This document shows positions 4,812 to 8,095 of a DNA stretch of 64,000 nt, one piece after another. Position 1 is the first letter of the stretch. Each line of letters starts with the position of its first letter. Source of the DNA: an uncultured Clostridia bacterium. GTDB lineage: Bacteria > Bacillota > Clostridia > UBA1381. The stretch lies in contig CAKSGG010000004.1 in assembly GCA_934454215.1 (NCBI GenBank), forward strand, positions 16,885-80,884, in the 5' to 3' direction. The notes under the pieces were generated by a model. That model was not told the DNA's origin. It worked only from the letters and a program-made list of their open reading frames with translations, and made no database searches. Made by a program: the position numbers and the translations under genes.

Positions 4812-5414
4812 ATGGTATTGGATTATGGATATGTCAGAGTGTCTGCCATAGATCAAAATATAGCAAGACAAATGATTGAAATGCAGGGGTTGAATATCAA
4901 AAAAAGAAATATTTTTGTAGACAAGCAATCAGGGAAAGATTTTAACCGCCCACGATATAAGGATTTGTTAAAGGTTTTAAAGGCGGGAGATTTACTCTAT
5001 ATTAAATCGATTGACAGGCTTGGCAGAAACTATAAGGAAATTATAGACCAATGGCGGCTTTTGACAAAAGAAATGGAGGTAGATGTAGTGGTTATAGATA
5101 TGCCCGTGCTTGACACAAGAATAGGAAAGGATTTGCTGGGAACTTTTATAGCTGATGTCGTGCTTCAAGTGTTATCGTTTGTGGCACAGAATGAGCGTGA
5201 AAACATTAAAAAACGACAAGAGGAGGGAATAAAGGCAGCAAAACTTAATGGTGTTGAATTTGGCAGGCCGGTCATTGCGCCACCTGAAAATTTTGCTCAA
5301 CTGATTGGCGATTGGCAAAAAGGAAAAATATCAGCAGAACGAGCAGCGGAAGAATGTAATATGAGTATAGCAACTTTTTACCGACGGCTGCGGGAATTAA
5401 GAGCAAAACAATAA
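4812..5414 (+). CDS. Small serine recombinase (resolvase/invertase family, Hin/Gin size)
   Basis: '[12 protein letters not shown]' contains the catalytic Ser, and there is a C-terminal HTH 'SIATFYRRL'. About 200 aa. The start could be TTG 4818. Confidence 0.85.
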
Positions 5415-5456
5415 AATCACTATCAAAAAGTACACATTTTGATAGTGATTTTTTAT
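5413..5456. terminator. Bidirectional intrinsic terminator (contains recombination site A)
   Basis: AAAATCACTATCAAAA / TTTTGATAGTGATTTT form a 14-16 bp stem with an 8-nt loop. There is an A-run on the left and a T-run on the right. Confidence 0.75.
5420..5445. repeat. Candidate hix-like recombination site A (12-2-12)
   Basis: CTATCAAAAAGT-AC-ACATTTTGATAG. The half-sites resemble the Hin hix half-site TTATCAAAAACC. Confidence 0.55.
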
Positions 5457-5503
5457 AAGCAAAAATTCGTTAAATAGCCTGTAAAACCTATTTTATACAC
5501 AAA

Positions 5504-5533
5504 TATTATACCAAATCATAGCTAAAATGTCAA
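5504..5533 (-). promoter_or_regulatory. Near-consensus sigma-A promoter on the minus strand
   Basis: The reverse complement reads TTGACA-18 nt-TGgTATAAT. Confidence 0.65.
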
Positions 5534-5575
5534 TGATACGGGGGCAATTACAGTAAATTTTTTTGAAGTATATGA

Positions 5576-5601
5576 TTATCAAATTGTGTACTTTTTGACA
5601 A
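5576..5601. repeat. Candidate hix-like recombination site B, inverted relative to A
   Basis: TTATCAAATTGT-GT-ACTTTTTGACAA. The core GT is the complement of the AC core in site A. Confidence 0.55.
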
Positions 5602-5674
5602 AACTATTATAAATGCGGTGTGATTTATCAAAATGATAGGTGTTAAAGGCTTTTACAGGAGGTGTTTATCAAGA

Positions 5675-6175
5675 ATGGACAATGATAAGGAATGTGAATT
5701 GAGGAAGCATAGATGCTGTTTTACAGGGCATAGACCGTGGAAGCTGCATTGCAGTGAAAATACTGTGAAAAAGAAGTTAAAGTCAGCAATCAGACAAGCT
5801 ATCCGGGACGGATATGTAACATTCATAATAGGAATGTGCTATGGGATTGATCTGTGGGCAGGTGAAATTGTTATTGCGGAAAAAAAGAAAAATTCCGCTT
5901 TGCATTTGGTAGCGGCAATACCGCACCCGGATTTTGAAAAGTCGTGGGAAGAAAAAGAGCAGCAGCTTTATTACAAGGTGTTGAGCGAAGTCGATATTGC
6001 AAAAACAATAAGCGAGCATTATTACCGCTCTTGTTATCAAAAGAGAAATACATGGATGGTAGATAGGTCGTCAAGAGTGATAGCCGCATATAACGGAGAA
6101 AGCGGCGGTACAAAGAATACAATTATCTATGCTGAAAAGCACGGCATAGAAGTTATAAATATACTCGACAAATAA
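5675..6175 (+). CDS. DUF1273 / YpsA-like SLOG-family protein
   Basis: 'CCFTGHRP', 'GMCYGIDLWAGE', 'KRNTWMVDRSSRVIAAYNGESGGTKNT' match the YpsA/DUF1273 pattern. GGAGGTG SD present. Confidence 0.75.
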   Translation: MDNDKECELRKHRCCFTGHRPWKLHCSENTVKKKLKSAIRQAIRDGYVTFIIGMCYGIDLWAGEIVIAEKKKNSALHLVAAIPHPDFEKSWEEKEQQLYYKVLSEVDIAKTISEHYYRSCYQKRNTWMVDRSSRVIAAYNGESGGTKNTIIYAEKHGIEVINILDK

Positions 6176-6193
6176 AATTAAATATCGCAAATA

Positions 6194-6223
6194 TTGACAA
6201 ACCTTTTGGGGACATTATATAAA
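6194..6223 (+). promoter_or_regulatory. Candidate promoter of the tyrosine recombinase gene
   Basis: TTGACA followed 16-18 nt later by TATATAAA. Confidence 0.4.
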
Positions 6224-6267
6224 AACACAGTTTAGTGGTAAAATATATACCAAAGGAGTTGTTCAAT

Positions 6268-7107
6268 ATGAGACAAATAACAAATGAACTTATAGAGAAT
6301 TTCAAAATTGATTTAGTAGAGGAAGAAAAGGCACAGGCAACGATAGAAAAATATATTCGTGATATCCTTGCATTTGTGGAGTGGCTGTCAGGAAGAACGG
6401 TTGAAAAGCAGACAGTTCTTGAATATAAGCAGAAACTGATAGAAAAATATGCTCCGGCAAGTGTTAATTCTGTTTTATCATCATTAAATAGATTTTTTGC
6501 TTTTGCTCAGTGGTTTAACTGTAAGGTGAAATCAATAAAGATACAAAAGCAAGTGTTCGCAAAACAAGAAAGAGAACTAACAAAAGCGGAGTACGACAGG
6601 CTTTTGGCAGCAGCATTGCATAAAGATAATAAGCGGCTTTATTTGCTGATGCAGACGATTTGTTCTACGGGAATCAGAGTATCCGAACTTAAATTTATAA
6701 CCGTTGAGGCGGTCAAAGTACAAAAGGCAATTATAAACCTCAAAGGCAAAACAAGGTCTGTTTTTCTGCCGGATATGCTTTGCAAAATGCTGCTTCGGTA
6801 TATAAAAGAGGAAAAGATAAAAAGCGGCAGTGTTTTTGTTTCCAAAAACGGTAGACCGCTCGACAGATGTAACATTTATCACGATATGAAAAAACTCTGC
6901 GAAAGTGCGAATGTGGATCGCAGCAAGGTTTTTCCTCATAATCTCAGACATCTTTTTGCACGGACATATTATTCGCTCGAAAAAGATATTTCAAGATTGG
7001 CAGATATTCTGGGGCATTCAAGTGTAAACACGACACGCATTTACACTATGGAAACGGGTGAGATCCACAGAAAGCAAATACAGAAGTTAGGACTGCTTAG
7101 ATGCTGA
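6268..7107 (+). CDS. Tyrosine recombinase (XerC/D / phage integrase family)
   Basis: AAGGAG SD. There is an N-terminal SAM-like core-binding domain. 'GIRVSEL', 'HNLRHLFAR', 'LGHSSVNTTRIYT' give the R..HxxR..Y catalytic signature. Confidence 0.85.
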   Translation: MRQITNELIENFKIDLVEEEKAQATIEKYIRDILAFVEWLSGRTVEKQTVLEYKQKLIEKYAPASVNSVLSSLNRFFAFAQWFNCKVKSIKIQKQVFAKQERELTKAEYDRLLAAALHKDNKRLYLLMQTICSTGIRVSELKFITVEAVKVQKAIINLKGKTRSVFLPDMLCKMLLRYIKEEKIKSGSVFVSKNGRPLDRCNIYHDMKKLCESANVDRSKVFPHNLRHLFARTYYSLEKDISRLADILGHSSVNTTRIYTMETGEIHRKQIQKLGLLRC

Positions 7108-7117
7108 AAATAAAAAT

Positions 7118-7141
7118 ACCACATAATCGATATTATGTGGT
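7118..7141. repeat. Inverted repeat L (lox/FRT-like site: 10-bp arms with an asymmetric core)
   Basis: ACCACATAAT-CGAT-ATTATGTGGT. On the minus strand it is followed by a T-rich tract, so it would terminate leftward transcription. Confidence 0.65.
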
Positions 7142-7176
7142 AAATAAATTTATTATACATAACTTTTCTGCGTATT

Positions 7177-7205
7177 ATTATAACACCAAAAAGGAATTTT
7201 GTCAA
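7177..7205 (-). promoter_or_regulatory. Consensus sigma-A promoter on the minus strand
   Basis: The reverse complement reads TTGACA-17 nt-TGtTATAAT, i.e. perfect -35, perfect -10 and an extended -10. Confidence 0.7.
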
Positions 7206-7388
7206 TGATTTGCGAAAAATTTAATTGTATTTGTCGAAAATCGTTAATTTCAACAAAAAAAGAGCAGCAAAACCGGACCATTGAAATTTTGAGCATTTCT
7301 ATGGTCTAAAAGTCGTGGGTTTTTGATGTGTTTTAATGTTGTGCATAATGACAGAATCAAAAATAATCACCCTTTATTAAGTTCTCAC

Positions 7389-7412
7389 ACCACATAATAT
7401 CGATTATGTGGT
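7389..7412. repeat. Inverted repeat R (exact reverse complement of IR-L)
   Basis: ACCACATAAT-ATCG-ATTATGTGGT. It matches IR-L 24/24 when inverted, but only 20/24 when compared directly. Confidence 0.65.
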
Positions 7413-7438
7413 GTGCGAATTATTTTTTTTGACTTGGT

Positions 7439-7477
7439 TTGTAACGATTGTAACACGGCTTGTAGAATGTGTTACAA
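7439..7477 (+). promoter_or_regulatory. Candidate promoter with a palindromic operator (likely TetR site)
   Basis: TTGTAA-18 nt-TAGAAT. The inverted repeat TTGTAACAC (7448-7456) / GTGTTACAA (7469-7477) brackets the -10. Confidence 0.5.
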
Positions 7478-7498
7478 ACTGAGCGGAGGTGGATTTCG

Positions 7499-8095
7499 GT
7501 GCGTGAACCTTCAATGAATAATATTCAGAAGGATGAAATTTTGAAAAAGTGTTTTGCGTATTTTGTTGAACACGGTTTAGAAAGTGTATCTATGCGAAAA
7601 ATGTGTGTCGAAACCGGAATGGCAACGAGCAGCGCTTATTATTGGTTTGGTAATAAGGACGGAGCAATACTAAGCGCAACTGAATACGGGCTGAATCGTG
7701 TGGCAGATATATTGTTTGATTATGTATATCAATATATAGATAATCTGGAATGTATCATTATAACATTTTCGGAATTTATTATGAAATATAAATCTCAGCT
7801 GAGGTTTATATATCAGGTTGTAACAAGCCAAAAATACGGCGACGAAATCAGACCGATAGCCAACAGGCTTACGGAAATATATGACCATTATACGGCGACG
7901 ATAGCAAATCACTTTGGCTGCAAAAAGACAGAACTTCAGCCTTATGTATATTTGTTTATATCCGCAGTTTTGGATTATGTTATCTGGCATGATAAAAATA
8001 AAATGGAAATTGAATTAGCCTGCATTTACAAAGCGGTAACTGATTTGATAAATAAAGATAAGGGAGGCGATGATGTTGCCGGAAGGAATATTTAA
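7499..8095 (+). CDS. TetR-family transcriptional regulator
   Basis: GGAGGT lies 8 nt before the GTG at 7499. The N-terminal HTH is 'GLESVSMRKMCVETGMATSSAYYWFGNKDG'. Confidence 0.8.
   Translation: MREPSMNNIQKDEILKKCFAYFVEHGLESVSMRKMCVETGMATSSAYYWFGNKDGAILSATEYGLNRVADILFDYVYQYIDNLECIIITFSEFIMKYKSQLRFIYQVVTSQKYGDEIRPIANRLTEIYDHYTATIANHFGCKKTELQPYVYLFISAVLDYVIWHDKNKMEIELACIYKAVTDLINKDKGGDDVAGRNI

Follow-up and report, generated by a model that had tools for sequence, protein, structure and literature searches.

Can a type VII secretion system (T7SS) be held under heritable ON/OFF control by an invertible promoter, and if two such switches stand in series in front of it, does the first act on the second? 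These questions are raised by 64,000 nucleotides of DNA from an uncultured Clostridia bacterium (GTDB lineage UBA1381; assembly GCA_934454215.1, contig CAKSGG010000004.1, positions 16,885 to 80,884), here called the window. Positions 4812-8095 of the window hold two recombinase genes, each followed by a short segment between inverted repeats (switch A and switch B), and a T7SS cluster lies downstream. We consider it probable that two phase-variation cassettes, portable and independent of each other, lie head to tail at this locus, and that each combines a recombinase with a short invertible promoter segment.

The gene order proposed in the initial annotation (serine recombinase, switch A, SLOG gene, tyrosine recombinase, switch B, TetR regulator, kinase and T7SS) was borne out. 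Its description of the switches also stood: the flanking sequence ATCATTGACA is present at both switch promoters, both switches are in the OFF orientation with the promoter on the minus strand and directed toward its own recombinase gene, and each promoter faces a terminator-like hairpin built from the recombinase-proximal site. The genes concerned are as follows.

4812-5414, plus strand: small serine recombinase of the invertase/resolvase type, 200 aa (PF00239, E 1.6e-25)
5675-6175, plus strand: YpsA/SLOG gene (DUF1273-type), the first gene downstream of switch A (PF06908, E 3.3e-23)
6268-7107, plus strand: Xer-like tyrosine recombinase, 279 aa (PF00589, and PF02899 for the N-terminal SAM-like domain)
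7499-8095, plus strand: TetR-like regulator, the first gene downstream of switch B (TetR_N, E 4.4e-5)
8070-10094, plus strand: Ser/Thr kinase (profile match)

The reading frame of the serine recombinase, which starts at 4731 in public gene calls, is intact. PF00239 spans residues 5-148 with S11 as the Ser nucleophile, and a weak match to a C-terminal helix-turn-helix (HTH) covers residues 163-197. A catalytic domain with a Ser nucleophile, a C-terminal HTH and a length of about 190-200 aa are the features of Hin/Gin-type proteins. The score against the Mpi master invertase equivalog NF009949 was 42.8 bits, below the cut-off of 272. For the SLOG gene, a start at 5675 is more likely than one at 5633. 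The tyrosine recombinase gene starts 92 nt past SLOG on the same strand and encodes intact catalytic R, H-x-x-R, H and Y residues; its best PDB matches are XerC-like, XerD and XerA. Scores under the NCBIfam equivalog cut-offs in every case rule it out as an orthologue of XerA, XerC or XerD, and its scores against the FimB/FimE families NF007370 and NF007371 were 32.5 and 25 bits (cut-offs 221 and 222). The catalytic residues, the SAM-like domain and the inverted arms around an asymmetric spacer in its sites place it in the Xer-like class.

Switch A has the following parts.

5423-5449 and 5572-5598: inverted repeat, 27 nt, 89% complementary
5420-5445: left site, hix-like, 26 bp, CTATCAAAAAGT-AC-ACATTTTGATAG, with the core AC at 5432-5433
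5576-5601: right site, 26 bp, TTATCAAATTGT-GT-ACTTTTTGACAA, with the core GT at 5588-5589
5434-5587: invertible segment, 154 bp, with the promoter on the minus strand
5533..5505, minus strand: predicted promoter, ATCATTGACA-N17, TG-TATAAT, a 12/12 match to TTGACA-17-TATAAT with the TG extension

The cores AC and GT are exact reverse complements of each other, and each site is composed of two imperfect 12-bp half-sites around the 2-bp core, which is the layout of Hin/Gin-type serine invertases. The serine recombinase gene lies wholly outside the segment, neither inside nor overlapping it as in Hin/Gin systems. The left site sits in a palindrome (5413-5452) that folds at -17 kcal/mol on the plus strand. 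On the minus strand (5452-5413) this gives a terminator-like hairpin with a stem of 16-20 bp followed by UUUUAUUGUUUUGC, a U-rich tail. When the ON state was simulated, the right-site fold reached only -3.0 kcal/mol, and the hairpin there would therefore not stop transcription.

Switch B has the same logic with different sites.

7118-7141 and 7389-7412: inverted repeat, perfect, 24 nt
7118-7141: left site, ACCACATAA-TCGATA-TTATGTGGT, arms around a 6-nt asymmetric spacer
7389-7412: right site, ACCACATAA-TATCGA-TTATGTGGT, with a spacer that is the reverse complement of the left one
7142-7388: invertible segment, 247 bp, with the promoter on the minus strand
7205..7177, minus strand: predicted promoter, ATCATTGACA-N17, TG-TATAAT, a 12/12 match to TTGACA-17-TATAAT with the TG extension

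The form CACATAA-N6-TTATGTG corresponds to the site layout of Xer/Cre-type tyrosine recombinases. The left site starts 11 nt past the stop codon of the tyrosine recombinase, and over the two switches this distance is 6-11 nt. Read on the minus strand (7142-7117), the left site forms a terminator-like 11-bp hairpin followed by UAUUUUUAUUUU. The plus-strand hairpin of the right site folds at -23.4 kcal/mol in the OFF state and at -14.1 kcal/mol in the simulated ON state, in which the U-run no longer abuts the stem.

Both switches are short segments flanked by inverted repeats that adjoin a site-specific recombinase gene, as is typical of invertons. Their promoters are the only two 12/12 extended promoters in the window, and none was found in 100 shuffles. 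The site motifs of A and B occur in the window at these four places only, where about 0.01-0.05 chance matches were expected. Because promoters and sites are unique in the 64 kb, the observation of two switches is far beyond chance.

Do the switches invert? For switch B, a scan for homologues of the tyrosine recombinase with one genome per species gave 176 homologous stretches, 80 of which (64-72% identity) were examined; individual loci and contigs are denoted below by L numbers. Almost all come from human or animal gut metagenome-assembled genomes that bear the label Clostridia (Oscillospiraceae, Acutalibacteraceae, Ruminococcus and others). Enough downstream sequence was available in 73 loci, and the site pair was present in 72 of them, at a median of 11 nt past the stop codon and enclosing 200-411 nt. 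The 6-nt spacers were perfectly reverse-complementary in 71 loci and comprised 33 distinct sequences, and the arms CACATAA/TTATGTG were constant. Constant arms combined with pairwise covarying spacers are expected of functional recombination partners. Sixteen loci had the promoter ON and 50 had it OFF, with six unclear. Many pairs of loci in this family have colinear flanks (83-97% identity) around an inner segment that matches only as the reverse complement. For L058 and L077 the inner segment is 92% identical as the reverse complement and 62% in the forward direction, with a right flank of 94%; for L016 and L033 it is 87% identical as the reverse complement between flanks of 95% and 95%.

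The same element as in the window was also found in other metagenomes. Switch B was OFF in contigs from about 21 samples and ON in contig L116 (= L097; sample ERZ28614312), which encodes a 100% identical TetR. The first 31 nt of this contig match the left inner end in reverse complement at 31/31 positions and are joined directly to the right site. Both orientations of switch B occur in nature.

Two side observations concern the sites of the tyrosine family. In L112, a close relative whose inner segment is 91% identical, a T-to-C change in the left site of switch B is accompanied by its complement in the right site (6622 and 6894), which is covariation of the repeat within a lineage. In about 15 family loci, extra tandem tyrosine-type sites are spaced 32-33 nt from one of the two paired sites (for example L080 5106/5139; L061 2384/2416; L055 4943/4976 and 5374/5407), and none are present in the window. 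They could be accessory binding sites or could allow alternative inversions.

Switch A belongs to a second family. Homologues of the serine recombinase with 74-76% identity (L010, L020, L028, L036, L038, L042 and L045) share its layout: past the stop codon lies a first site embedded in a palindrome, then about 115-135 nt and the second site, and a 12/12 promoter with TG is enclosed. All seven have the promoter directed toward the recombinase, which is the OFF state. A metagenome scan added 80 relatives with 60-69% identity. Paired sites with reverse-complementary cores were present in 31 of these 80 and in the seven genome relatives, giving 38 loci besides the window, with 33 OFF, four ON and one unclear. 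When L127 was compared with L129/L133, and L135/L136 with L140, the flanks were 98-100% identical and the inner segment was 100% identical as the reverse complement. Exchange at the central dinucleotide of L129 predicts exactly the half-sites seen in L127. These exact inversions with a half-site swap at the core show that the serine-type switch inverts in nature by the serine-invertase mechanism. The 26-bp sites and 2-bp inverted cores of Hin/Gin-type systems are thus present, with exchange at the core seen in relatives. From these relatives at 60-69% identity we infer that switch A is active in the element of the window.

Several other sequences at the switches were considered as signs of inversion. 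Metagenome contigs terminate within or at the switches unusually often, including L098, L116 and L117 at switch B. The contig ends at both switches could reflect mixed orientations or T-run polymorphism and are not decisive. Contigs ending in or at switch A (L002/L115, L005, L007, L105, L204 and L205) were not counted as evidence of flipping, because their break points differ from the point at which ON and OFF sequences diverge; the breaks may come from a length polymorphism of the T-run past the left site (6 or 7 T). In the Logan contig L203 (about 2205-2215), ACAATTTGATAG replaces ACATTTTGATAG in the left A site. This was rejected as a half-site hybrid and is probably a single-nucleotide polymorphism, because core exchange cannot create a partner-like half-site.

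Both proximal sites double as terminator-like hairpins, and it might be supposed that the inverted repeats serve just for termination or are palindromes by chance, with fixed antisense promoters and no programmed inversion. The covariation across 33 spacer types, the occurrence of both orientations across both families, the exact inversion pairs and the ON junction of switch B in this element all argue against this explanation, which we regard as hardly credible.

What would switch B control? The genes downstream are listed here, together with a candidate regulatory region in front of TetR.

7428-7478, plus strand: candidate fixed secondary promoter with a TetR operator, containing TTGTAAC repeats and the inverted repeat GTTTGTAAC..GTTACAAAC
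8070-20335, plus strand: co-directional cluster of Ser/Thr kinase, two unknown proteins, FHA protein, PP2C, EssC, unknown protein, YukD and WXG100
14437-18969: EssC (TIGR03928, the Firmicutes T7SS ATPase equivalog, 1142 bits against a cut-off of 778)
19787-20044: YukD (profile match)
20048-20335, 23019-23333 and 23384-23680: WXG100 proteins (profile match)
21540-21830: DUF4176 protein (profile match)

EssC also matches the Pfam families FtsK_SpoIIIE and FHA. An EssC with FHA and FtsK/SpoIIIE domains, together with WXG100 and YukD/EsaB proteins in the cluster, identifies the system as a type VIIb secretion system (T7SSb). The open reading frames 10134-10754, 18987-19787, 20368-21525 and 21852-23015 had no significant Pfam or NCBIfam match, including to EssA, EssB and EsaA. 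Co-directional, tightly packed genes run from TetR to about 28.6 kb. Between 7400 and 27399 no promoter scored 11/12 or better, and terminator-like sites were no commoner than in shuffles. Switch B is positioned to gate the TetR-kinase-T7SS cluster, and its control of one long T7SS transcript is plausible. In relatives, a TGTAATG-N2-CATTACA palindrome lies within a TTGACA-17-TACATT promoter at the same position between switch and TetR, and an operator-like palindrome is found just past the switches of L069, L074, L079, L080, L082 and L086. This suggests that a weak fixed promoter at 7428-7478, controlled by TetR, could be a second input to the cargo operon.

Taken together, the two cassettes might work as follows. 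In cassette A, the serine invertase would act on a 154-bp segment through hix-like 26-bp sites with exchange at the central AC/GT, and would gate YpsA/SLOG. In cassette B, the Xer-like tyrosine recombinase would act on a 247-bp segment and gate the TetR-kinase-T7SSb operon. In the present state, both promoters, predicted to be very strong, would fire back into the proximal-site hairpins, so that both cargos would be OFF. When B flips, its promoter would read through the weakened right-site hairpin into the TetR and T7SS genes, and the weak fixed promoter past switch B, probably under TetR control, may add a second layer. Read-through from A would not be needed for B, as the tyrosine recombinase appears to have its own promoter. 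We infer from the sequence how strong the promoters are, where transcription ends, how far the operon reaches and that TetR may add a layer of control.

Several observations weigh against this explanation. The promoters, terminators and operon structure are consensus predictions. The right-site hairpin and T-run of switch B persist in the ON state and could still attenuate transcription. The TetR_N score (23.6 bits) is just short of the Pfam cut-off of 24. The ON state of switch B in this element is seen at one junction, where the contig reaches 31 nt into the inner segment before it ends. For switch A, a search of all contigs carrying an identical tyrosine recombinase, SLOG, TetR or serine recombinase protein gave no ON copy in the same element; all of the approximately 16 distinct contigs were OFF, as were the seven related genomes.

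This last result would also be expected if switch A were a fossil or locked OFF, or if the serine recombinase served the conjugative element, for example as a resolvase, so that only B works here. The gene lies at the edge of a block of conjugative-element genes (37-4713, with TraG/VirD4, RepA_N and DUF5697), and the sites of switch A are only 89% complementary. Imperfect half-sites are normal for hix-type sites, however, and a strong OFF bias is general in the serine family. Switch A has moreover kept the family architecture of its sites with exactly reverse-complementary cores, a perfect consensus promoter and an intact recombinase reading frame, and its relatives do invert. We therefore think it very unlikely that switch A is dead or belongs to another process.

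Does switch A control switch B? The initial annotation had proposed a cascade in which switch A, once ON, drives the tyrosine recombinase and hence the flipping of B. It had also placed a promoter of the tyrosine recombinase itself at 6194-6223 and suggested looking for the same two-switch arrangement in related genomes. That arrangement was found in L036, L038, L042, L045, L010 and L028. The order recombinase-switch-SLOG-tyrosine recombinase-switch thus recurs in three diverged lineages with different cargo (the window; L036/L038/L042/L045; L010/L028), and in every composite relative and sister strain the first switch is followed by a SLOG gene. The sister strains (L108-L114), which belong to the same species, have a 100% identical TetR and the same T7SS, and a paralogous tyrosine recombinase (281 aa, 63% identity) replaces the serine cassette. 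They keep the tandem layout with this tyrosine-type first cassette (for example L108 4030-5200); their first switch is OFF, has the same arms with the spacer TCAACA, and is followed by SLOG, tyrosine recombinase and switch B. In addition, SLOG and the tyrosine recombinase are co-directional with no predicted terminator between them (none in 5601-6268), and SLOG-tyrosine recombinase pairs without a first switch in L050 and L052 hint at a functional link. In a true cascade, A in the ON state would drive SLOG and read-through into the tyrosine recombinase, or SLOG would act as an accessory or directionality factor; in both cases the state of A would decide if B flips or at what rate, as a two-step heritable gate on the T7SS.

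Other data speak for autonomous cassettes. About 90% of the 80 loci homologous to the tyrosine recombinase are without an upstream switch or SLOG gene. Among serine recombinase cassettes with enough downstream sequence, SLOG was present in 2 of 62 and a tyrosine recombinase in none of 51. An extended -10 (TG-n-TAAAAT) is conserved about 30 nt before the ribosome-binding site (RBS) in nearly every tyrosine recombinase locus, composites included. The promoter that the initial annotation assigned to the tyrosine recombinase is better located at the extended -10 TGGTAAAAT at 6236-6244. The upstream TTGACA may have another function in the leader of the gene.

6190-6270, plus strand: leader of the tyrosine recombinase; an anti-Shine-Dalgarno (anti-SD) arm at 6190-6210 is complementary to 6249-6270, which holds the RBS and start codon

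The anti-SD arm includes the TTGACA at 6194-6199, and the extended -10 lies in the loop. The duplex has a predicted energy of -17.4 kcal/mol (z -4.0 compared with shuffles), and the stem is present in the minimum-free-energy fold. A motif of the ATCATTGACAAC type, which is the reverse complement of the RBS and start of the tyrosine recombinase, is kept in roughly half of the family's 80 loci, and inspection by eye showed a few compensatory changes in the pairing (L081, L017 and L032). No consensus structure emerged when the recombinase leaders were aligned with MAFFT and folded with RNAalifold, as indels shift the register. Only transcripts from upstream would be masked, because transcripts from the own promoter would lack the masking arm. 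These data are suggestive of a stem that dampens translation of read-through transcripts. Furthermore, simple tyrosine invertases, when present in larger amounts, flip their segments faster in either direction and do not set the ON state. The proposal of a cascade is thereby weakened, and we judge a true cascade to be unlikely. Coupling of A to B by read-through, or perhaps via SLOG, is possible but unproven, and a simple read-through cascade probably does not operate. All contigs that span both switches, which lie 1.7 kb apart, were OFF/OFF (at least 10 A/B and at least five A'/B, where A' denotes the first switch of the sister strains), and the ON-B contig starts inside switch B.

Raised expression of YpsA blocks cell division in Bacillus subtilis (PMC6459960, PMC7376506). 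It is conceivable, though we hold it doubtful, that the locus is a two-layer circuit in which the first switch turns on SLOG, and perhaps extra recombinase transcript, and so alters the rate or direction of the second inversion. Upstream of the first cassette, the sister strains have restriction-type genes (ResIII/RE_endonuc) or other genes and not conjugation genes, and their synteny with the window breaks within the 5' end of SLOG (163 aa compared with 166 aa).

In the tyrosine family the cargo is always on the same strand (70 loci) and starts soon after the switch. It consists mostly of surface or envelope proteins (SLH, fn3, dockerin/cohesin, BspA-type leucine-rich repeat, Zn-ribbon, SPFH/Band 7 and VWA) together with TetR regulators. 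EssC-like cargo (FHA-FtsK/SpoIIIE) was found only in the lineage of the window, L010 and L044. In about 20 family loci the first cargo gene encodes a TetR homologue; the idea that such loci are T7SS loci in general was rejected, as most carry SLH, fn3 or dockerin surface proteins. Because its cargo is diverse, the tyrosine cassette appears to be a generic portable phase-variation module with the T7SS as one recurrent cargo.

The use of an invertible promoter is itself well known. In the fimS/FimB/FimE system of E. coli, too, the recombinase gene immediately precedes a short invertible promoter in the same direction, and an operon follows. In such a layout the recombinase transcript runs into the switch, and orientation could feed back on recombinase expression. 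Switch B differs from fimS in that its recombinase is Xer-like and not of the FimB/E family (PRK09870, 32.5 bits against a cut-off of 221), each switch has one recombinase, the repeats are perfect over 24 nt with a 6-nt spacer and not 9 bp long, the host is a Gram-positive gut Clostridia, and the cargo is a T7SS. Switch A resembles Hin/hix of Salmonella, Gin/gix of phage Mu and Mpi of Bacteroides in the size (about 200 aa) and C-terminal HTH of its serine recombinase, its 26-bp sites, exchange at the core (in relatives) and the promoter inside the segment. We take its half-site TATCAAAAAGT to resemble the hix half-site TTATCAAAAACC. Unlike in these systems, the recombinase gene is outside the segment, which is only about 150 bp long, and whereas Mpi serves many switches, the recombinase here has one local switch. 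Synthetic recombinase cascades and state machines likewise place a second recombinase downstream of a first invertible promoter, but the present locus is natural and has features that would insulate the second recombinase (its own promoter and the anti-SD stem).

The RecV switches of Clostridioides difficile (cwpV, flagellar and cmrRST; PMC6837544) also involve inversion of regulatory segments of about 150-300 bp, located in front of surface or signalling operons, by a tyrosine recombinase in Clostridia. RecV has several targets, is encoded away from them and acts in trans, whereas here each recombinase adjoins a single cognate switch; the family of switch B shows 33 spacers, and no further such sites occur in the 64 kb. 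Surveys of gut invertons with PhaseFinder and DeepInverton (PMC11602134, PMC11892184) also describe promoters flanked by inverted repeats that adjoin recombinase genes and are enriched upstream of cell-surface genes, a preference matched by the mostly SLH, fn3, dockerin, LRR and Zn-ribbon cargo of the tyrosine family; these two papers contain no mention of secretion systems, T7SS, tyrosine recombinases or cascades. The initial annotation knew of no T7SS under an invertible promoter, and we likewise found none in the literature searched (invertons with T7SS, cascades, and tyrosine recombinases of Clostridia), which also contained no description of the two cassette families, their site grammar or the tandem arrangement. 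What is new is the T7SSb as cargo, the two widespread cassette families with a defined site grammar, and the conserved tandem of a serine and a tyrosine cassette.

Beyond the core T7SS, the region 23785-39757 encodes an SLH-domain protein, copper-amine-oxidase-N-domain proteins, an S8 subtilase with SH3 domains, a second Ser/Thr kinase (26608-28590), an LprI-domain protein and a clostripain-family peptidase. The latter (35228-39757, 1509 aa) had been considered as a second EssC, and this was rejected. The T7SS island is bordered on both sides by genes of conjugative-element type (37-4713 and 41573-62500), with a helicase, a DnaN-like clamp, MoxR-VWA, a JAB protein, a DUF6094 methyltransferase and an SMC-like ATPase on the distal side. 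The island may be cargo of, or a neighbour to, an integrative conjugative element.

Our study describes two apparently uncharacterised families of recombinase plus inverton that are widespread in gut Clostridia. Their site grammar, with fixed arms and a free 6-nt spacer in the tyrosine family and hix-like sites with an AC core in the serine family, allows simple orientation calling in metagenomes, and the cassettes offer orthogonal natural pairs of recombinase and site. The conserved tandem is a testable candidate for natural hierarchical phase variation. If the two-layer circuit is true, expression of the T7SS would be set by a heritable two-step decision, and the recombinase-switch-SLOG-recombinase-switch block would be a mobile double-lock cassette present in three diverged lineages with different cargo. 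Through T7SSb, Firmicutes export antibacterial toxins; these systems influence competition between gut bacteria, and they are usually thought to be regulated by signalling and not by heritable ON/OFF switching. If the T7SS described here is phase-variable, only a subpopulation would pay the cost of the secretion apparatus and display it, which would bear on interbacterial antagonism, immune exposure, and evasion of phages or receptors.

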